DNA of 64,000 nucleotides from Tricharina praecox (Eukaryota), in assembly GCF_024521635.1 (NCBI RefSeq), contig NW_026250404.1:2356001-2420000 (forward strand). The letters are read 5' to 3'. Of the stretch, positions 49,344 through 64,000 are shown one piece after another; position 1 is the stretch's first letter, and each line of letters begins with the position of its first letter. The notes beneath the pieces are model-generated. The model did no database searches. It saw nothing but the letters and a program-made list of their open reading frames with translations, and was not told where the DNA came from. The position numbers and the translations under genes are program-made.

Positions 49344-51450
49344 CTATGACTCCTGCGCACAGCACCCATTCCCATTCTTGACCTCTAGCTCATGTTCCTT
49401 ATTCACCACCGCGCCTTCACCAGCACCCTGCGCATGCTTCGCACTTAGTAGAACGCTCTGGTTGAACTGCTGCGTGCTTGGGGGCACGTCTAGCCCCGGG
49501 TTCTTATCGAAGAAGTTAACCGGCTTAAACGAGACCTTCAAGATCTCACATGGCATGACAGGGAAGTCCTCTATCCTCGGGATGTGGTTAATCCCGAACT
49601 GAACGAACACGACTGGCTCGCCATCGATTTCTTCTTTGCGGGCCGCCCACCCGCGCACGCCCTCGCCGCCACGCGACTGATTCGTCCACTTCCCGGCAGA
49701 GAACAGCTCGCCCTCGCGGTACTTGGTGACATAGACGGCGTTGTCGCCGAACTCGGCGCGCTTGAAGTGGAAGCTGTTCTTGTCGGCGAGGAGCTTTTGG
49801 AACGGCGGGACCGCGATCTTGTAGCCCGTGGATTTGTTGTTGATCGGGTTGCGCGCGCGAGTCGATTGGATCTTGAATGTGCGGTTGAGCGCTGTGGCCG
49901 TGTCGTGTCCGCCTGGTACGGTGATCTCGGTTTCCCGCGTGATGTAGCCTACTCCGTAGGGATTGGTGTCTGGGTGCACCGGGAGTGCGACCGCTTCTTC
50001 GACGACGACTTTGTTGCCTTGCCCGTCGATCGCGGGGTCCAGGCGCAGGGAGAAGATGTGTTGGTGGTGGGCGGCGAGGACCCCGGGGTGGACGACGGTT
50101 CCCCACGGCACCTCGAGGCCGTGCTCGATCGGCGAGGTGGAGAGGATGCCGGTGGCACGAACTTCGTAGTGGAATTCCCCGCTCTGGCCGAAGATGAACG
50201 CCAGGATGTACTCGTAGTTGCTGACCGTGATGATGCTTTGGATTACCAGCTCGCGGGAGCGGGTAACGACCGCCCGGCCCGTGCGGTAGTTTATGTGCTT
50301 GAAGCCGATGCCCGCGTCCTGCTCGTGGATGCACATCACGTTTGGCATTTCCAAGACCTCGCCGGTTTCTATCGAGAGGTTCGAGGAGAGATAGTGGATC
50401 GAGCCGAGGCAGTCGCAGCCGAGTTTGAGGTTGTTCGCCATTACGCCGGCACCCTGCAGCTAGTTAGTCGAGTCATGAAGCGTGCACGGCAGATGTACTC
50501 ACCGCATCTCCCAGGTCAAACGCCTGTTTCTTGTGGTAGGGGGAGCGCGGGTCGGCATACGGAATCGACATGTCGCTGAGCGCAATCCTCCATACGATAT
50601 CTCGGCCATCGTACGAGATGTTGTACAACACCATGCCTTCGCGGTGGTTGAATCCCGTCCTCAGCTTCCACTTCTGCCACTCGATCACGGCGCTACCACT
50701 GTCTCGGATCTCTTCCGTGACGGTGAAACTCGCTCCTTCCGGCTGCACCACGTGCAGAGGCTTCAGATCTGTGCGCAGGTTCTGGTGCTCGGGGGTGTAC
50801 TCGGACGGAGGCGGAACCCGATACGGCTTCGGCAGAGTAGGCGTGTGATCAGTGCCGGTTGGCAGGTTTTCGATCCTGACCACCTTCATAGTCTCGACGT
50901 CCACGACGGGACTGATCGAAAGGGGAAACGCGTAGTGATTCGAGTCGGGATCATTCTCGCCGTGCGGCGACTGCAGGTAGAGATAGCACTGAAACTGCCG
51001 CCTCGAGTCGTTAACGCCGTCGGAGCCATAGATCCATGGGTCGGACACCACGACACTTCCTTCGGGCAAACGCAGTTTCTTGAGCTCCTCCTGCACGCCA
51101 GGATCCGCAAGCGCCACCTTCTCCATCGCCACGATCTCGGGGCCATCTGCGGGGCCATGGAACCCGTCCTTGACGCGCGAGTTGCTCGTGAGCCGCGACT
51201 TCCCAAGATCCACGATCGCCTCGTAGAGCTTGTCCGTGTTGCGGATGTAGTAGCAGAGGTAACCCTCACGGGCGGGCAGCGGCCCGGGACCGGCGCCTTC
51301 GTTCCATGCCAGTAGACTGGCTTTTATGGGCTCTCGAAGGGCGATGGCTTTGAACTGGAACTCGTTGCCTGCGGGCAGTGGGAAGCCGGCTTTTAGGATC
51401 GCGCAGCAGGCAGTGATCTCATTTGGTAGGAGGGGCGTAAGCGGATGCAT
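49344..51450 (-). CDS. Copper-containing (TPQ) amine oxidase
   Basis: TVSNYEY topaquinone consensus, HHQH and GINH copper ligands, PYADPRSPYHKKQAFDLGD, LKLGCDCLG, EDFPVMP; one intron. Confidence 0.96.
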
Positions 51451-54400
51451 TGTGGCGTCGGCGGTGGTCTATATTTGTCGGCGTGCTTAGTGACTTTTTT
51501 GTTTGGGGCCTTTCCGTATGAGACCGGGGGAAGCACTTTTATATACGATTCCCTTCCTTCCCCGAGCAACTGGAAGTAGCAACTTTTTCCGGCAAGCGTC
51601 AAGTGCAAATACGACGGCGGCTATCCCCGGCGACCGAAGAGTGTATTTCCCCACGAGAAGGAGAGAAGGAAGGCCGACGGAGGAGTTCTCGATGCAATAG
51701 GAAGTTCAATCGAAGGGAGGTTCGTTCCGAGGAGCCAGGTGACCCCGGATTTTCGAGTGATACGGATCTGATCTGGTCTGGGATTTCTACGAAGGCAGGT
51801 AGGCAACTCAATTAAGTCGGGATTTTTTTTCTCGAGATTCGGGAGGATGGTAGATAAGCAAGTGGGGGGAGGGTGACGCAGGCCAGGGCCGACCGTGAGA
51901 TCGGACGAAAGCTCTGGATTCTGGCTGTCCTATGTACAGACAGGAGGACGAAGGATACAGCACCGAACAGCGGAGGGTCCCAGATCTCTGTTTTTGCGGG
52001 GGCGGGGGAGGGGATCTGATGCTGAGGGTTCGGCGGGCGAGCTAGTGGAGGGGAACCAAGGCGGATGATCCTTTCGGATTAACGGCGGGTGGTAGCGTCG
52101 GATCGCGGAGGTGGGAGGAGCTAAGGAAACAGTCTTGTTTTGGGCCCTTTCGTCGCTCGGTTGCTCAATCGAGATACCGTGTAGGGCAGTGGTGGAAGAG
52201 GTCAGTTATATGTCGGTAGCTGTAGGATATTAATATGGGTAAATATCGATCCTTCCGACTTCGTGGTCTCGCCTGAGTCGCCTGGGTCCGCACTCCGCAG
52301 TTCCCAGAATAAACCCGCACGTCGGAATAGCAATGGCTGAGAAAAAGCAACGTTCGAACGACACGAAAGGGTATCGGAAACTGGGGGGCGTCGGTGGGAC
52401 GAGAATCGAGTCTTTCCGTCAGTGCCGAACGCGCGAGAAGAGGGGGATGGGGTATGTACTGGAGTCTGGACTGGAGAAGCACTCACGGTTAGAGAAGTCA
52501 GATGGAAAGGTGGTAGGGGACGGGATGGAGGGTTCTTGATATCTCCCAGGGTCTTGAATCTTGAGGCTTCAGCAGGGAACGTATGTATAATACAGGCAGT
52601 ATAGTGCACTACGCATTTCTCGGATGTAGTTGCGTCAACAGCGGAAAAGAGGAATCTGGTGAGTACATACCCCGAAGCCCACGATGCCCCATCCAACACT
52701 GTGGGGAACCCTGAGCATTCGAAAGCTGTGAGGGGGGGTTGGCGGCATGCCGTAGGCATCAGCACGCAGTAACTAAGGTACGGGTCTGTACAAGTCGATA
52801 CTTGTTTTCTGCAATGCACGTGGACGGGGGATCACGGGCATCGGTGCCCTTGCTTCGGGAATGCAGGATGGATGAGGACTGTAGTTGGTGATGGGGATGA
52901 GATGAATGCCGCCGGACGTAGTAAGGATTGTAGAGTATGATGTATGTTCCGGCATCCGCGAAACCGGAACCGTAAAGAGCTCTTCCTCGTCCTTGACCTC
53001 GTCGTCATCGTTCTCTTGCTCTTGCTCTTGCTCGTGCTCGTCCTTTCCCTCTCCCTCTTCCTCTTCCTCTTCCTCTCCTCGTCCTCTCCCTCCTCTTCCT
53101 CCCCATCCACCACCACCACCACCTCCCCCCCTTCTCATTTGCTCATCGCGGCGATGACATCGTTGTCCGCAAAGTGGTGATCGTTTCGGCAGCCGAGAAG
53201 GCCTACAAGTGAGTATTGCGCATGGGCATCGCATTGCCGCATTTACCCCCAAGCGAGCCTTGGGAATGCTGGAACGTTTCATGGGCATGATTGTGTGGGG
53301 AATAGGTACGTATGGAGTCGAAGAATCCCCAATCCGTATGCATAGCACAGTCAGATAGTTTCGTCAACGGGGCCGAGATGAGCAGTCAATCCATTCGATC
53401 GAACGGACTCGACGTCCATACGGCACCTACCGTCGATACAGCTAGGTACTCTACATACGGTACGGTTCACAGCTCGCCCCCGAGCGACACTTTATGCGCG
53501 CAAACCCTCGGCGCTGCAGTGCAGACACTGAGCTCGCCTTCGGTTCGCTCGGAGAAATAATTCGCGATGTGACTCGTCGGTTGGCTGGTTGGCTGTCGGG
53601 TGGCTGGCTGTTGGGCGTCGCAATCGTTTGGTCGTCGAACGCCTCGCTGCCGACCTTCTGCATTTGGCCGTCGGTGCCCGGCCGGGAGCTACCGTAGCCA
53701 TGCTTTCTTCTTTCTGCCCCTCCGCACCTCGAGCCCGTGATTCCCGGAACTCTCTCTGAATTCTTGCCTGTTTCAGCACGACAACCCGTCAACTTGCCTT
53801 GCTCTATGACAGCGTGACGTGGACTTATTTCGAGATAGGTACCTCAGTAAGTAAGAAGGTATATACATTCAAAGTACATGCTGGCCAGTAGTTTTATGAC
53901 GGGCCGGCTGATCAAGTGCGGGGTCGCGAGTTCAAGTGGCCAACCAGGTACATACCTGGAATAGGTACCTGCACGTGCATAGTTCCCGGCGCTCTGCCGC
54001 CCAAACAAACCCCGATTCTTTTCTTCAGGTTCTAGCACGTACATACCGTAAATACATACCGATACCTACTCGCGCGACCGAACGGGTGCCACTGTCACTT
54101 CCACAGGCCGTCGGGGTTCGGAGTGTGCACTGTGCAAGTGATCCCAGCCCATTGCCGTGTGTAATCCCCCACAGCCAAGCCGTCCAGCTTAGATACCAGT
54201 ATGTACCTATTCGCGAACGGGATTCATGGCCGCAATCGGTCACATGTAGGATTCTTGGCCTTATGCACCCATTGGGACATGCCCGGAACTGCATTCCACA
54301 TATGTCCGAACGGCCTGCATGGACGTGCGTTCAATGTTCATGCCTTGGTGGCTGTCCGTGGGCAGACATCTACCATGTATACCTACTCTGAAGTCTGCAT

Positions 54401-54906: not shown

Positions 54907-57900
54907 CTAATCTCCTCCGCCTACCTCCGACACCGCGGACGACTGGTAGTCCTTAGCATCAAAGAAGTCCGTATCTTCGCTGCTACTCTCGTAGACCTTC
55001 AGTCCGCCCTTCCGTCCCTTCCGGTTCTTGAGTAATACATCCGCCGATCGTAATACCATCCGAGAGCGGGTTTCGTGTACCTCGAATTCAGCGGGCGAGT
55101 CGAGACCATCTTCCGGCGCGTCTGTGAATTCTTCTTCCTCTCCCTCCTCATCGTCGTTGTCATCTTCGTGAAGTTCCTCGTCCACCTCCACTTCCTCCTT
55201 CTGTTTCATCTTCACTTCTTCCTCTTCCTGCTTCCTCTTCTCTTGCTCCTCCTCCTCCAGCTTCCTCCTCCTCTCTTCCTCCTCCTCTGCCTTCTTCTTA
55301 GCGATCCTCTCCTTCTCTTTCTCCCCAAACATCTCAATCCCCGCACGCGCCGCCTTCGTCCTAGCATGCTGCCTACTCGCGCACCTCTCAACCTTGGTCC
55401 ACACCGCCGCGTCGACAGTGAGCTCACACGAATACAATCCGCCGTCCTCCTGTTCGCAGTGATACTTAACGACACCCATCCTGCCCCCTTCCGCCACCAT
55501 GATCCCAAACCTACTCAGCGGATGATTAACTGTGACCCTGTCCCTAACCAATCGTCTAAGGACCTTCATAACGCCAATGCGCTCCAGAAACGCCTCGACC
55601 GCCGCAAACGAGCCATTCGAGTCGACCCAGATCGCGCCGACAATGCTCTCGATGATGTCAGAGAGATGTTTTGGCGCGTCGAGCTCCTGCAGGTCCGTCC
55701 AGGGGTACTCGGGCGACGACTCCAGCTGCTGCGCAATGGTGTCCTTCCACTTCCTATACCTGCGCGCGCAGGCGTCCTGTGCGTGCCGCAGCTCTGGGTT
55801 GTTGTGGCGCAGGAAGCGGTGGAGCGGCAGCTCGACTTTTCGGCGGGTGGGCGCAGAGTGCGCGTTGGTTTCTGTGCGCTCGATTGTCGTGGTTGCGCCG
55901 AGGCAGAGGAACGCGAGGAAGTGCGCGTTCACGCAGCAGGATTTTAGGTGGTGCATGTTGATGTGCGTCAGAGGCGTGGATAGCCCGTGGAAGTGGTACA
56001 AAGTGTTGACTACTACGGTGTCGATCACGGCGTCGCCTAGGAACTCGAGGCGCTGGTAGGACGTGGTGTTGGTTGCGTCGCCGGCGCCGCCGGCGCCGTA
56101 CGAGAGGTGCGTCGTCGCCTCGATGAGCAGGAGCGGGTTGTCGAAGGAGTACCCGAGGAGCTGCTGGAGCTCGGTGAAGTGCTGTGGGTAGGTGCGTGCA
56201 CCTTGTTTGCTGGCGTTGGAGAGGGCGTTGGCGCGGAGGCGGGATGCGCGGGTGGTGAGCGGGTGCCATGGCCAGTCGACACCGAGGTTGAAGGTTGCGC
56301 AGCATTGCGTTGCAAGGTCGTAGCCGCCGGTGAGGTACGAGACGCCGATGATGGACTCGACGACGTCCGCGAGGATCTTGGTCGAGAGCATCTTGCTGTC
56401 CGGGGGTGTCACGTTGGAGTCGGCGTATCTGGGCTTCCATTTGAGCGCCGTGAAGGGCGCGAGGTTGATCCATCGGCTGAGACGCTTCTCCGCCGCGGAT
56501 TTGGAAGATGTGCCGTTGGACACCACGTGGTCCTTTGCGGCCGTGAGGTATCCCTCCGGCCAGAGTGGAAACTCGTCCATGAGCGCGACCGAGGCGAGGA
56601 CTTTGAGCACTGAATCGCCCAGGAATTCGAGGCGCTGATAGTCCACTGGGTCCCGGGTAGCTGATGCAGTGGTGGCGTGTACAAGAAGTTGGTTGGGCAC
56701 ATCGAGCTGTAGGGTCTTCTTCAGGTCTGCGGCGAGGAGTGCTTTCTCAACCCGGTTGATGAGAGCTGGTAGGAACAGTGCCAACATGGCGTATTTCAAT
56801 GGTAGAGGCTCGACCGTCAGGAACTCTGGAAGCAGCAGCAATGTCTTGCAAGGCTTGTGAAAACCCTCGCGGTGTAGAAAGTCTCGTCGTTTGGGGAGTT
56901 CGTTGACTTCGATCAATGGCTGATCCGCCCTCACTTTATCGCGGTTCCGAGGAGACTTGGCCTTGAAATCGTCGGCGTTACCGATATCCACGTCCGTTAC
57001 CAGCCGTCTGAATATATACGCCATTTGGTTTGAGGTTTTCCGCAATAGCCCTATGTTAGACAAATCGCCATTCCTTTCGTTGATCAACTCAAGGGCGTTT
57101 TGGTGTACGTCGGGAATCATGTCCCAAGACTCGCCGCCGTCGCTAGGGAGGAAGAGGTAGATGAAATCGTCGCGCATGGCATCCATCCTGGAATTAAACA
57201 CAGTCATCATCAGCCGGCGGGTTGCCTTCCTGCCGCGCTCCACCATCATCGGATCGTAGTCGATACGACGACTACGGCCAAATCTCGCATTCGCCGTATC
57301 GCTGAGCGGCCAGAACAGCTCGAATTCCTCAACATAAGGGACCTCAACCGGCAATACCATATCAACACTAACCGTTCTGCCGGTGTCGAAGTCCAACGTC
57401 AAAGTCATGATATACAGCGACTCCGCGTTCTCCCACTTCTTGCCGACCTCGGCCCATATATCCATCCGCTGATCGACCTCGACTCTCGGCGCCCTCTTCT
57501 GCACTTCCTGTTCGTTCTGGAACTCGCCCTTAACCAGCGGCATCAAGTAGTCGTCCACAAGCTGTAGCTTGATCAGTTTCAGGAACGCCTCGAAGGCGGC
57601 GTCGCGTTTCGCCGCACGTTCCGTCTTCCAGGCTCGTGTCCCGGAGGACCGCCGGATAGCCTGATCGATGGCATTAGGTAGGATCACCTCGGCCGTCCAC
57701 TCGCGACCGCCTCCCGGAGGTGGAAGGATTTTACATTCTGTTCGGAATTCGGGGCGCGAGTCTACGAAGTCTCCCATGGGCAGGCAGTCACAGAAGTGGT
57801 AGAGATGGGGCAGGACGTTTGCAAACATCAATAGAGCCCTGGGTGGTCTGGTCAGCGGGGGTGTGAGGGTGATTTGGATGGCGGTAGCTCACTGTGTTTT

Positions 57901-60507
57901 GTTCATTCTCATGACCCGATCCTCTCCTTCCTCGCACTCGTCATCCTCAACTTGCTCGAGTTCTCGGTTCGGGTCGGAGTACATTTTGATCATCTCCTTC
58001 TCCATTTCCTGGAAAGCAATAACACCACTGGTGTCGCGGCTGCCTAGCATGATGACGTACGAGCTGGATTCGCGACGGGCTCTTCCTCGGCGCTGGACGA
58101 AGCTCTTCAAATTGGTAGGCAGGTCGAAGCACACCACCAGATGGCAGTCCTGGATATCGATTCCTTCCTCGATGGCCGAAGTGGCTATAAGTAGGTTCAA
58201 CTTTCCGGCACGGAAATCCCTGAGGGTACCTTCCTGCTTCTTGCCGCCCACCAATACATCGTGCAGGAATCTTTGATTCCTCTGGGCGCTGGTCGAGGTG
58301 CCGACCATAGTGCCGACCCGGAAAAGGTCTCGCGTCTTCGGATGCTGGGAGATGATCTGGGCGATAACAGCCACAGCAGCCCGCTGCGTCACGAACACCA
58401 GTCCGGAGAAATCACTGTGCTCTGCCGAGTACTCCTCCAGCAGCACCTCGATGAGTGTATCCACCTTTGCCGAAACATGGTCTTCGATCGGACCTAACGT
58501 GCTCGGTAGCACGACCTCCTGCAGAATGCGGCGCACATAGCGTGCTTCATCACCGGTGCTGAAGAATGCTCTGAAATCGTCTCCGACCCGGTCGTCTTTA
58601 TCGGCATCATCATCTCCCAGCGCCTCATCCATCTCCGTATCAAAGTTATTCTGCCGGTGTAAAAATTTGTGCACGACTCCGGTGATGAACCAATCGGTAG
58701 CCCACACACCGCATTCGGACATGATATGGCACGCCTTGTTGACAAAGGTCTTCATGTGCTCCTGCGAGTACGTTTTCTCGCTCATGATGGCCATTTGGAG
58801 ATCACGTTCGGCTCTGTTGTCAAGACGTCTCTGTAGCATGATGATGTACGGATCTTCCATTATATCCATGCATTCGTAGGCCTCCAGGAGCGATGCGAGA
58901 GAGTTGGGCACTCCCGCGTAGAAGGAACTGGATTCAGATGCTGGAGCTGTTGACACGACACCGGATGGAAAACGTTCACCGATGTACGGGTCGACGGGCT
59001 CTGTTTCGTACCCTTCCGATCCATGTGATGTATGGACGGCCGGGAAAGACTTTCTTCGCTTCGGAGAGATGGCCTTGCCTACTGTGGCAGATACCAGCTC
59101 GCCGGTTAGGGGATCGATGTCGTCGAATTCATCGTCCCCATCTTCCACCTCGGAAGAAAGTTGAGAATACTGCCTGGTTCGGATGGGAGCACGCGCTGGC
59201 TTCTCCGCCACCTCGCCGGTGATGGGGTCTATGGTCTCGAATTCGGAATCGGAATCGTAGGGCGACGATGGCTTCGCCCCCATCTCGTCCATCTCTGCAT
59301 CGTCCGATACTGTCTCATCCACCTCCTCAGCCTCCTCAACCACCCTCTCCATATCGCCCGTCTCCATAACCTCCTCATCCTCCTCATCCTTTTGCTGCAT
59401 TCTCCCTGCCTGCTGCTGTCCCAAAGCGAGAAGATCCGCCCGCGAAGATGTAGTAGCAATTTGCTCATTCGCCTGCGGCCTAGTGGAGTTGCCATACCTC
59501 ACCAACTTAAGCTTCGGCGGCCTAACATTCTCCAGCAGCTCTTTGCGGTGCTTCAATGGCGTCCGGGCAATAGCATTGAGGTTGGACTCGATTATTTTCA
59601 GCTGTGCGGGATTCGATTTCATGATGGGGCTTGCCGTGAGCCCCAAGATGTCCGGCACCGGGAGTCCGTCCCGTACTCGCTCGTGGTAGAAGTGCCGCAT
59701 TATCATGTTCGCGGGGTGGTTTTGTATACAATGATGGGCTGCGTCGAGGTCAGTGGGGGGAAGGGGTGGGGGGCATTGACTCGGAGCGGAGGGTGTGCAT
59801 ACCCTCATCGAAGATTAACAAGCCGATACGCTCCATCTGTACGAAGCCATGGGTGAGAGCATCTAGGAGCACCTGTAGTCGGTCAGAACATGTAGCCATA
59901 CATCTCACAGCAGCGGAGAGGACAGTGGACCTGATGAGTACTGATAACCACCGGCGCCTGAAGCAACTCGTCCCAGATCTCTTTATTGCTCCATTTGTCG
60001 ACACCAGAGGATCCCATGAGGAGTGCGATCCCGACGGGCGGAAGCGCACTCATGAGCACTTGGTGCTGCTGCTTTGCCAACTCAACTCCTGGGATCAGGA
60101 ACCATGATAACTGGAGATGTTAGCCGTAGCTCAGGGACGGGAGGGACGGAATACAGACCTTACCGTCGCCACGATCTAGCTGATGGCAGATACGCATGAT
60201 GGCGCTGATTGCCGTCTCATTAAAATTCCATGACGTCGCCAAGATGTGGTGGAGAAGGAAGGGTTTACATATGAGTTTTCCCAGACCCAGTGTCCATCTT
60301 TTCATCACCCATCAGTCTCCAAGTCTACTGCATCTCTGGCCAGGGTCAACACACAGCTACGATGATATTCCGTCGCAAGCTCTCCTCGAGCATCTCCGCC
60401 TGATAGTTGCGCGTCCTCGGCAAGTAGACCTTCTTTTCCGCCGGTGTAGACAGGACGATGGGCTCTTCATCGGAGGTGGAGCCATAGCTTCCACTTTTCG
60501 AATCCAT
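54907..60507 (-). CDS. dcl2: Dicer-like protein 2 (DExH helicase, dimerisation domain, 2x RNase III, dsRBD)
   Basis: [103 protein letters not shown]. Confidence 0.95.
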
Positions 60508-63341
60508 CGGGCCCGGTTTCGGTTGGATATCGATAAGTGTGAGATGGGGCGGTCGTGGGGGAGGTTTGGCTGTGAGGGGAAGTTTAGCGGGGTTGAGCAC
60601 GCCTCTATATGTAGCCTCCGATAAGATGGGCCTGCTCTGCTGCCTAGTTGGCCGGTCCCCGATACAGTCGCTGCCGATCCATTCGACGAGGTCCGTAGGA
60701 TGTCACGAGTACGCGAGCCGACAGGAGGAGCGAATGGGCGGTCGAAGAGACGAATATCTCGTTTATCGGCAGATGCGGACGCGGGGTCATTGGACAACTT
60801 GCATTCTCGGAAACGTGCTGGGCGGCGGCGGCTCTTCGCATTTAATGTTTCAACGCGCCATTCGAAGAGGAGCGAAACTCTGTGACTCAGATAGACAGAA
60901 ACCTTCTTTGCCTGCGCACCGCGTCCAGACCCACATGCGCGCGTTCAAGGTCGCGACCCACGAGTATATAAGGCAAACAAAGAGGGAACATGGTCTGGCC
61001 ATGTTAGCGTCCCCTCCCGTGCTCAATCGGCCTCCCGGGCGCCAGGGACGCTAACCGGTATGTACTCGCGGTACATACACAGGCATAAAGTTTTGGAGTA
61101 TGCATGTACACAGAGTACATACGATATGGGGCTGGACTTAAAAGAAAGTATGAGTGAAAAGGCTGTTCCTCTACATACGGTCTGAACGGACCTTATCAAA
61201 CTCACGTGACGTAGCGCACAACTACACTGATCCGAACAGACTTGTCGGTGGGTCGGCTTCAGCCACCAAACCTATCACTCGCCTCTCACGTGCTTCTCTA
61301 CATAGCCTCCTTTCGTGCCAATCATATTCCATCACGTGATTATCACGTGCCGAGTCCTTCCTCATGATCGCGCTCTCTCTTTGTACCACAAGAGTAAGGG
61401 CCGTTTGGATGACCTCAGTTCTCAGTTCCAGTTTTAGAACCAAAGTCAGTTCCCCGCCTGGACACCGAATACCGTTCAGTTTCAGTTTCCGGAAAACTTT
61501 GAGGTGAACAGAGTGTTTGGCCATTCTCAGTATACTCAGCCATAAGTCTGAATAATAGGCTTTACTAGAACTTTAATAGTAGACACATTGTACCAGGAAC
61601 AGCCAATAGGTCGTGCCTCACCACCATTACGAATCATAAGCGCAAGGTGAGGCACCACTGGTTATTTCACTTGGTTGCCTGGCGTTCCAGAAATCTCAGA
61701 GAGATCCTGCCATCGCTACGGTATCTAAAGTATGTACTGGTGGGAGAGAATTCATTCTCGCCGCTATATCTAGATTTAGATGAGCTTTGCACTCATCTAG
61801 GATTTGGTAAATAGGCCTATGATTCGCATAATATACCGTGCTTTACCGATTACGAAGAGACGTGAGTAGGTATATAGTACTCGGGTGATTATGAAACGGC
61901 ACGATCACAACCGATCACTAACTACACCTGACCTCGACCTTATCGGCGAACGTCACGTGAGCACAAATGGGATTTCCACCATCGTCCATCGTGGAATCGT
62001 AGTGGGACGTAAGAGAAAACAAGGCGACCCCGAGTGTATATCGTACGATCCATTGGGAGGCAGATAGGTGCTGTTTTATGGAAAGCTAGGTAGGGGATTC
62101 TCGGAAACACGAGTGATGCTCCACGGAACCATTCCGACACTCGGAATAGCTTCATACGTAACCACATGCATCCGAGACACAACAGAAATATGCATGCATG
62201 TCCCATGAATGATCAAAGATACAATGGGAATGTAATTCAAATAATTCATTTGAAGCTTCGGCATCTTCAGTCAGGATCATATTGAAGTTGCTGTGTTTTG
62301 TGGAACCCGGGTGGGACTTTTTGTGGGGACTTTTTGTGGGTACCCGGGTGAGGACTTGGATGAGTGTCTTCGCCCATCACCCTTCAGTTTCTCCCACACC
62401 ATATCAACTAGATCAACCTCATCATGCCGCAGCAGGTACATAAAGTTATACTCTCGTGCTTGAATTTGAAGAGCGAACTCGATCCCCACGATTTGTTATC
62501 CTTTACCGGAAGGCGAAGTGGTAGCTTTTTTTTCTGCCCTTGTTCTCGAGTCTCTGGCCGGTCTTTTCATCCCTTACCATCAATACTTGAATCAAGTCAG
62601 CAGAGTCCAGCCGACATCGAAACTGCTTTGACTGAACTTAGTGTACTTCACTGGCAGTGGAGACGCGCATAGGAGTGAGCTGTGCCTCTCTTGCTCTCAT
62701 ACTATACCGCATTCATCTGCTACTATATTCCTACTGACTCGAGATAATGGGATCCTTCGATCCCGACACTCCGTGAACATCCATCGGTTTTCCACGAGCA
62801 AGGCTCAATTATGGGTCCAAACCCATATCTACGATGGCAACATTAGCCGTCGCGGTTGGACGGTGCGGGTGGCGGCGCCGTATCTACTACTCCATGGTAG
62901 GGGCATGATCGGATCTAGAAGATAAACCAACCGTATATGGTTGAAACCTTGAGTTACTGAGGCACCAAGAAGTCTCCAATGTGAGCATGCCCCATTGCGG
63001 GCCAACATCGCATATGAGAAACAAAGTTTTCTATCGGAGGAATTGAAAGGTATATTGCATGGATCCCCTTCTCTCATAGTGGTTCGGAATAAGCCAGAAA
63101 GACGAAGGTTAAGCTACAAAACCATTTTAATGACTGGAATCTCCGCCGTCTTTCAAGTTGAAGTTCCCCGATGAGCTCGAGCTACAAAAAGCCACGTCTT
63201 CTTGCGGTTGTTCTTGCTTCTGTTCCTCATCATGCCTCGCTAACAGCTTCTCTCCTACGACTTCTGAAGATTACGAGATAAATTCCAAACCTCCACCCGA
63301 TTTTACCGATACAACCCCCGCGATACAACCCTCACGATAAG

Positions 63342-64000
63342 ATGGCCGACGATATCCATACGCTGGCGATGCAGCTGTGGATGGAGGATATAGACGTATT
63401 GGATACAGTGCACGGCTACGAGGCCGGCCCTTCGACAGCTGGGGCCCCCGATCACGATCGGCCACCACCCCGCGGCGACAAAACCGACACGGAATCCAGT
63501 ATTCCAGATTTCGTCATGGCATTCGGAGGAGGCGAACCTCACTGGCTGCAACATCAGCAGGCCGAGATGGCATTCCTCCAAAGGCAAAACGCCGGGAGAC
63601 AGCGTGCTGCCGGTCGTCATGACCCTGTTGCACGTCCTCGGCCTCAACCGGGACCTGCACGCCAGCTAGAGCATTGGCCTCAACCAGGACCGGCACGCCG
63701 ACCAGAGCCTTGGCAGGAACCCCAGGGTAAAGGGAAAGGCAGAGCCACGGGCGTCGATTGCACCGCGTGCAGTGACGAGATTGTGGGGGAGCTCCACGAG
63801 CTGAAGTGCGAGCACCGGTACTGCATCGACTGTCTCACCCAGATGGTCTCAAAGGCCCTGGGTGGAGAATCGGACACGAACTTTCCTCCGAAATGTTGCA
63901 CGGATCCGATACCGACGGATGCCGTGAAAACGGTACTCTCAGCCGCCGATTTCAAGAAATACGAAGAACGTCTCGACGATCGCAAACAGGCTGTGCAGCT
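63342..64000 (+). CDS. RBR/IBR-family RING E3 ligase, 3'-truncated by window
   Basis: Open frame from ATG 63342 to window end: CTACSD..LKCEHRYCIDCL..FPPKCC (fungal RING1 signature); not in the ORF track because it has no stop in the window. Confidence 0.8.
   Translation, partial: MADDIHTLAMQLWMEDIDVLDTVHGYEAGPSTAGAPDHDRPPPRGDKTDTESSIPDFVMAFGGGEPHWLQHQQAEMAFLQRQNAGRQRAAGRHDPVARPRPQPGPARQLEHWPQPGPARRPEPWQEPQGKGKGRATGVDCTACSDEIVGELHELKCEHRYCIDCLTQMVSKALGGESDTNFPPKCCTDPIPTDAVKTVLSAADFKKYEERLDDRKQAVQ

Follow-up and report, generated by a model that had tools for sequence, protein, structure and literature searches.

Where in the cell does a fungal Dicer meet its double-stranded RNA (dsRNA)? The question is raised by a gene in the 64,000-nucleotide window of the Tricharina praecox genome analysed here (contig NW_026250404.1, forward-strand positions 2,356,001 to 2,420,000), since little is known of where quelling and antiviral dicing take place in fungi, and DCL2 is as a rule regarded as an enzyme spread through the cytoplasm. 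The window carries an intact DCL2 gene on the minus strand (60507-54907), whose product runs on past its last domain into a long acidic tail. A sequence-only reading had recognised in this tail two motifs of the FFAT type (a pair of phenylalanines within an acidic stretch), peptides that bind VAP/Scs2 proteins, and had proposed that the enzyme is anchored at endoplasmic reticulum (ER) or perinuclear membranes. Our comparison of related proteins suggests that a floppy acidic tail with an ER-docking tag anchors DCL2 on the ER in T. praecox and in scattered other ascomycetes, so that the earlier interpretation as a whole is partly supported. We consider it likely that the DCL2 motif binds Scs2, and we put the probability that DCL2 docks on the ER in order to work there at roughly 0.55.

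With the domain boundary set by a hidden Markov model (HMM), the tail after the dsRNA-binding domain (dsRBD) is 137 residues long, close to the earlier estimate of about 140; it is in frame, and the last exon stops at 54907. Its features are as follows.

55174-55323, minus strand: spacer rich in E/K/R, predicted helical, extending the last dsRBD helix (38 of 50 residues E/K/R; helix in the model).
55111-55149 (core 55131-55111), minus strand: FFAT-like motif 1, EEGEEE-EFTDAPE, score 1.
55009-55029, minus strand: basic patch KNRKGRK between the motifs, partly kept in orthologues.
54976-54996, minus strand: VYESSSE, a weak phospho-FFAT-like site that scores 3 and overlaps motif 2's serine-rich flank.
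54949-54987 (core 54969-54949), minus strand: FFAT motif 2, SSSEDT-DFFDAKD, score 0 (ideal).

Both cores lie in the last exon's open frame exactly where the sequence-only reading had placed them, 54 residues apart, and each follows an acidic or phosphorylatable tract as it had described (EEGEEE for motif 1, SSSEDT for motif 2); motif 2 lies 13 residues before the stop. The core sought was E/D-F/Y-F/Y-D/E-A/C-x-E/D with a matrix score below 3, using the matrix of Table EV4 in PMC7705450 (papers are cited by PubMed Central number, each for the portions of its text that were available). That matrix was written for phospho-FFATs, and conventional motifs were scored with our own adaptation of it, which gives D/E zero penalty at position 4 and uses the upstream tract only. 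Scoring of this kind had been suggested as a check, and the values of 1 and 0 for motifs 1 and 2 come through it well: of 20000 shuffled versions of the 137-residue tail, one reached a best score of 0 (0.00005), a score of at most 1 had a frequency of 0.0038, and no version showed the pair (0 and 1). VYESSSE is the only further site at or below 3 in P0001, the public entry for this protein. The spacer, called single-helix-like in that reading, is a candidate single alpha-helix by its composition and by an AlphaFold model of the last 209 residues, in which the E/K/R stretch forms one long helix (block predicted local distance difference test score, pLDDT, of 91-96 mid-helix) and both motifs fall in low-confidence coil (pLDDT <50), as their composition, that of an unstructured region, would lead one to expect; the model was made from a single sequence, has low overall confidence (mean pLDDT 53.7) and is poor over the dsRBD.

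The motif is far more frequent at the end of DCL2 proteins than composition predicts. From 259 pooled candidates, 9 were dropped because the HMM could not place the end of their dsRBD, and the remaining 250 tails, that of T. praecox included, were scored along with 300 shuffles per tail. A site scoring at most 2.5 occurs in 31 of the 250, where 3.4 are expected from the shuffles (a nine-fold excess); 146 of the tails are shorter than 30 residues, and among the 38 of at least 60 residues the count is 19 against 2.5 expected. Of the searches that supplied the candidates, one had a query that included the tail, which could favour tail-bearing matches, and one had a tail-free query whose matches were reduced to 145 representatives at 50% identity; the latter by itself yields 12 of 145 against 1.3 expected, a count never reached in 200000 draws. 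When relatives are collapsed by core identity, 23 of 194 (70%), 17 of 157 (60%) and 12 of 114 (55%) clusters retain a site, against 3.3, 3.1 and 2.7 expected. The best site ends within 16 residues of the stop in 29 of the 31 carriers (10 if evenly placed). Eighteen of these sites are conventional and 13 have Ser or Thr at position 4, where docking would depend on phosphorylation. Two dropped Phyllosticta entries, P0123 and P0124, also bear FFAT sites (two in P0123, EYESAVE and EFFDAAD) and stand outside these counts.

A test free of the matrix gives the same picture. Taking as anchors the aromatics preceded by acidic residues, 32 of 89 in the tails have Ala or Cys three residues further along, against a background of 7.7% and against 4 to 11 of 89 at the other five offsets; at this FFAT position 5 the representatives give 12 of 31 anchors, and control stretches give 10/187 and 10/166. 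The letters around the anchors are Ala at position 5 (29/89), Glu at 7 (39/87) and an enrichment of Asp, Thr and Ser at 4. When acidic segments were excised under a uniform rule, with 100 shuffles for each, 24 of 71 in DCL2 tails score at most 2.5 (2.7 expected), and there is no excess upstream in the same proteins (6/178, 4.9 expected), in 82 other long Dicers (5/223, 7.6 expected) or their last 100 residues (1/82, 1.0 expected), or in long open frames from 54 kb inside the window together with 200 kb of contig sequence (3/67, 2.5 expected). At a score of 1.5 or below, DCL2 tails give 15 of 71 (0.4 expected) and the four control sets 1, 1, 1 and 0. DCL1 tails carry the motif in 0 of 21 (18 metagenome last exons from 22 loci, the paralogue of T. 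praecox itself, and P0170/P0182), a weak control because the 18 were read by eye, the tails have 5-40 residues and several are near duplicates. Together, these sequence comparisons show that an FFAT-type motif at the DCL2 C-terminus is a selected trait in a minority of ascomycete lineages, kept or re-made.

Conservation among close relatives separates the two motifs. The closest orthologues, P0002 and P0003 (77% and 69% identical), both read EFFDAK at motif 2, and the motif with its flank has 10 of 13 positions common to three close orthologues; the residues after it are also well kept (9/13), so the conserved unit may exceed the core. Motif 1 shares 3 of 13 positions and reads ESTDAME and EYTNAEM in the orthologues, neither at or below 3.5. 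In the helix 10 of 50 positions are common to the three, and spacer composition is kept in P0002-P0005 and P0008 and not in P0011-P0014. The conservation across related DCL2s that the sequence-only reading had suggested checking stands for motif 2 and fails for motif 1, and the weight that it had laid on tandem motifs for a VAP dimer is not supported. As a family trait, tandem motifs were rejected: 5 of 250 tails have two sites at or below 3.5, the second scoring 3.5 except in T. praecox.

Mapped on a FastTree phylogeny of the tail-free core, the FFAT state changes at least 19 times, the tree being blind to gain versus loss. In the clade around T. praecox DCL2, 10 of 16 members have the motif (read off the tree drawing). 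Named carriers elsewhere are Byssothecium and Mytilinidion, which we take to be Dothideomycetes, and Puttea and Stictis, presumably Lecanoromycetes; with Pezizomycetes, carriers are found in three ascomycete classes. On the same drawing, the motif is absent from the Tuber/Choiromyces/Peziza block (0/19), from the block with named Agaricomycetes (0/26) and from 12 named Sordario-, Leotio- and Eurotiomycete DCL2 proteins.

A partner for the motif is encoded in the same genome. One Scs2/VAP gene was found with a degenerate DNA pattern (G000:C83, locus L004), with seven exons, 262 residues and a C-terminal hydrophobic anchor; its relatives carry PF00635, and a Pfam search with that family over the T. 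praecox genome came up empty, the gene being broken up into short exons. The organism thus has a VAP/Scs2 protein with a pocket predicted to be intact: V38, K39, T40, T41, V48, N51, K83, F84 and K119 match, by motif and spacing, the residues that form the Phe2 and Ala5 pockets of VAP-A (V51-T54, V61, N64, K94, F95, K125; PMC7610837), with Leu where VAP-A has M96. The family excess at the C-terminus, the Ala/Cys at position 5 and this Scs2 protein all speak for the FFAT reading of the peptides.

On this basis we propose that the tail acts as a flexible tether and that the FFAT motif at its end is functional. Its acidic flank would meet the basic surface of the MSP domain, and Phe2 and Ala5 would enter their own pockets, as in known VAP chemistry. 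Part of the DCL2 pool would then be held on the ER membrane's cytosolic side, which takes in the nuclear envelope and contact sites, about 120 residues from the catalytic core. Docking may further raise the local concentration of Dicer near membrane-bound dsRNA, for which the candidates would be products that RNA-dependent RNA polymerase (RdRP) makes on messages bound to the ER, or replication intermediates of viruses at contact sites organised by VAP. The nuclear envelope as the docking place is favoured by nothing in the results.

Several observations weigh against DCL2 being docked for work on the ER. Six of the 16 members of its own clade have no site (Ascodesmis, Wilcoxina, P0004, P0005, P0008 and P0013), Tuber/Choiromyces tails have no FFAT despite being acidic and 100 residues long, and 219 of the 250 DCL2 tails have no site at or below 2.5, from which it follows that Dicer function in general does not require the tether; the helical spacer, moreover, is missing in several carriers. 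The conventional-FFAT scores depend on an adapted matrix, and by itself the matrix lets many proteins through, 2,079 of 20,373 human ones scoring <3 (PMC7705450), for which reason the case rests on excess, position and letter pattern and not on any single score. For many homologues the sequence is the open frame of a last exon as called in metagenome data, and some of their C-termini may be wrong. DCL2-eGFP was spread through the cytoplasm in Fusarium graminearum (PMC12667476), a counterpoint tempered by the lack of the motif in the named Sordariomycete DCL2s sampled. Finally, the results have no bearing on which RNA a docked DCL2 would meet (viral, ER-bound or freshly exported).

The same evidence has to be weighed under other explanations. 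If the motif bound Scs2 as a parking or disposal signal, with DCL2 held inactive on the ER until signalled or passed to ER-linked autophagy, the sequence evidence would be identical to that for docking at work. The yeast repressor Opi1 is held on the ER in this manner and freed on a signal. Thirteen of 31 best sites are phospho-type, as expected of a switch; the basic patch between the motifs of T. praecox DCL2 and the autophagic turnover of DCL2 in F. graminearum (PMC12667476) would also suit such a role. The patch, however, is just partly kept in orthologues, the Fusarium turnover belongs to a lineage whose sampled DCL2s are motif-free, and a long spacer would fit an enzyme that works while tethered, so that we find this explanation doubtful. 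The motif may instead be selected for a partner other than VAP, either another reader of acidic-aromatic peptides, such as an Atg8-family protein, a PH domain or a histone-chaperone-type site, or the enzyme's own basic RNA-binding surface, onto which the tail would fold. The family excess and the controls show selection, whatever partner the motif has; in several sites the second aromatic is missing (YMTADE, YATAGE) or the site runs up to the stop, and acidic clusters that damp RNA binding have been described (PMC10127258). We nevertheless judge this unlikely, because the enriched letters (Ala at 5, Asp/Thr/Ser at 4, Glu at 7) are those of the VAP pockets and because conventional and phospho forms, the two classes known for MSP domains, both occur. 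An Atg8-type site in particular would need L/I/V at the offset where Ala stands, and the letter there rules against it.

That acidic low-complexity tails simply drift, F-x-D-A arising without function, would account for the patchy distribution with its at least 19 state changes and for the decay of motif 1 in both close orthologues; this explanation may hold for motif 1 itself. At the level of the family, chance is already largely refuted by the nine-fold excess over composition-matched shuffles, by the counts at the stricter cut-off of 1.5, by the four control sets without excess and by the clustering of sites at the stop, and motif 2 is better kept among three orthologues (10/13) than the dsRBD (45 of 70 positions identical), all of which makes it a very unlikely account of the whole. 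It is hardly credible that the protein lacks the tail, through splicing or an early stop in the real transcript. Sequence and annotation are the basis for placing the tail in the transcript: no CTRAY branch point occurs in 55420-54700, the annotation of P0001 takes in the complete tail, and in both closest orthologues the frame stays open down to a common ending, AVSE.GG. Two small sequencing runs contain over 90% of the sequence words but may be DNA, and the RNA runs contain small shares, so that none of these runs counts as evidence. Docking of DCL2 on the ER through its C-terminal FFAT motif remains the reading that we prefer.

Upstream of the tail, the gene is that of a conventional fungal DCL2. 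The model has 7 exons and 1751 residues, with GT..AG at every intron and a single stop, and contains GSGKT, DEAH, SAIEEGID, QRRGRAR and both RNase III signatures; with these catalytic signatures present, the enzyme is predicted to produce small interfering RNAs from dsRNA. The full fungal DCL2 domain set is found (DEAH helicase, Dicer dimerisation domain, two RNase III domains and dsRBD).

60507-60355, 60297-60269, 60204-60159, 60110-59931, 59872-59803, 59738-57893 and 57838-54907, minus strand: DCL2 exons.
58072-58458, minus strand: helicase C-terminal domain (PF00271), Pfam E 1.1e-17.
57529-57813, minus strand: Dicer dimerisation domain (PF03368), Pfam E 3.5e-23.
56323-56637, minus strand: RNase IIIa domain (PF00636), E 2e-35 for the whole protein, 2 stretches.
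55630-56058 (approximate limits), minus strand: RNase IIIb domain (YQRLEFLGD ... DIIESIVG).
55327-55536, minus strand: C-terminal dsRBD-like domain (HPLSRF ... TKAARAG), by alignment to the family HMM.

Residues 380-975 of the last exon (the part searched) are 100% identical to P0001, labelled Tricharina praecox by its source, and named homologues further down the match list are Dicer-like protein 2. P0001 is a partial annotation of 1471 residues that leaves out model residues 239-429 and 514-528. The protein is closer to DCL2 than to DCL1, and the only other Dicer match in the genome, at a separate locus (L003), is the DCL1 paralogue, 37% identical to Lachnellula DCL1, with the C-terminal CxC (it ends in CSC) and a short acidic tail without an aromatic residue.

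Some further observations concern DCL2 itself. Between the two tail motifs, at 55033-55065 (minus strand), SRMVLRSADVLLK is kept as VLRS.xVL.K in both close orthologues and its surroundings drift. Pfam gave a sub-threshold FAM60A match to the tail, rejected as a match of composition, and the ESM Atlas held no usable match for it. The Tuber/Choiromyces tails P0016, P0019, P0021, P0022 and P0122 have in common a conserved block at the C-terminus (RRKVFEDEASHVDLKIGDLDTVL..C) that may be a docking motif of another kind. An acidic insertion in the DCL2 helicase contains three copies of acidic-[FY]-x-x-[IV]-D-P-[ILY]-[TI]-G-E (D of each DP at 59229, 59115 and 58992, minus strand); this DP-G-E motif also occurs in P0008, Tuber brumale and Wilcoxina, and three times in Choiromyces. 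The insertion is omitted by P0001 and so may be an in-frame intron or a mis-annotation.

Among the other RNA interference (RNAi) genes, at least four Piwi loci and three RdRP loci were counted in the genome. An RdRP at G000:C40 (L063, about 3042, minus strand) ends in an extended acidic tail; its EEYDDAPE scores 1.5, at a frequency of 0.049 in shuffles, and closely resembles DCL2 motif 1. At another RdRP locus, on G000:C83 (L064, about 1058, plus strand), a long N-terminal open frame contains SESANSFLSAEE, of phospho-FFAT score 1.5 and a shuffle frequency of 0.004 uncorrected for the several genes examined. In an Argonaute at G000:C45 (L061, about 5920, minus strand), the very long acidic stretch at the N-terminus contains EFTSGVE (score 2), likely a chance site given its shuffle frequency of 0.19. 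Head to head with the Scs2 gene, at 2510-2900 of L004, lies a gene with the start MVQTDYDALLEMGF, which we take to be UBA-like. In the window, the DCL2 neighbour at 49344-51468 (minus strand) is an open frame with an SNYEY motif, presumably a copper amine oxidase, and an open frame at 63282-63998 (plus strand) with C-x2-C ... C-x-H-x2-C-x2-C looks RING/RBR-like by eye and runs off the window.

Motif and enzyme are each known, and the combination is new as far as our literature search shows. In agreement with the sequence-only reading, which knew of no FFAT-tethered Dicer, none was found in our searches of the open literature, although one may be listed in papers behind subscription or in the FFAT tables that Slee and Levine 2019 compiled across proteomes; a word search of the human phospho-FFAT Table EV1 (PMC7705450) gave no DICER, Argonaute or TARBP2 entry. 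T. praecox DCL2 has the same helicase, dimerisation, RNase III and dsRBD-like domains as the antiviral DCL2 of F. graminearum (PMC12667476), and differs from most sampled DCL2s, which have tails shorter than 30 residues and no motif, by its 137-residue FFAT tail. With the VAP/Scs2 clients OSBP, STARD3 and yeast Num1 it has in common an E/D-F-F-D-A-x-E/D core that follows an acidic or Ser/Thr tract within a disordered, presumably cytosolic tail, and Ser/Thr-4 variants are seen among FFAT clients and DCL2 relatives alike (PMC7705450, PMC7610837, PMC11116812). The clients named in the available text of those papers are lipid-transfer, tether and signalling proteins and no Dicer, whereas binding by DCL2 is predicted; in Num1, a matrix-predicted fungal FFAT was later confirmed (PMC11116812).

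ER-associated RNAi by other anchors is already known. In mammals, the RNA-induced silencing complex is anchored at the rough ER by TRBP/PACT (PMC3630355) and CLIMP-63 is found with human Dicer (PMC3526294); in plants, RH3-AGO2 serves AGO2 loading at ER-chloroplast contact sites used by replicating viruses (PMC11862194, from whose main text, as available, the word "FFAT" is absent). These systems place silencing machinery on ER membranes, as we propose here, and the plant one does so at viral-replication contact sites; they use partner proteins, whereas the Dicer itself would here carry a short motif for a general ER adaptor. In yeast, tombusvirus builds Scs2-dependent contact-site compartments that shield dsRNA from Dicer/RNAi (PMC5552349, PMC4199759), a plant virus in a surrogate host, and the accessible text of that work describes no Scs2-tethered host Dicer. 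One might imagine that several ascomycete lineages have wired an antiviral Dicer to VAP, some by a phospho-switch, to wait at contact sites that viruses co-opt, and that together with the two FFAT-like RdRPs this makes an RNAi compartment on the ER organised by Scs2; we offer this as speculation held with considerable doubt, and its route, by independent gain or by repeated loss from an ancestor, is just as speculative. More immediately, C-terminal GFP tags on motif-bearing DCL2s would adjoin the motif and call for caution. A seven-residue motif that one substitution can remove makes the location of DCL2 directly testable, and if the prediction is true, sister lineages with and without the tag would form a natural comparison. 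Binding to Scs2 would then give these fungi a Dicer with a built-in ER anchor and would link RNAi to membrane contact sites.

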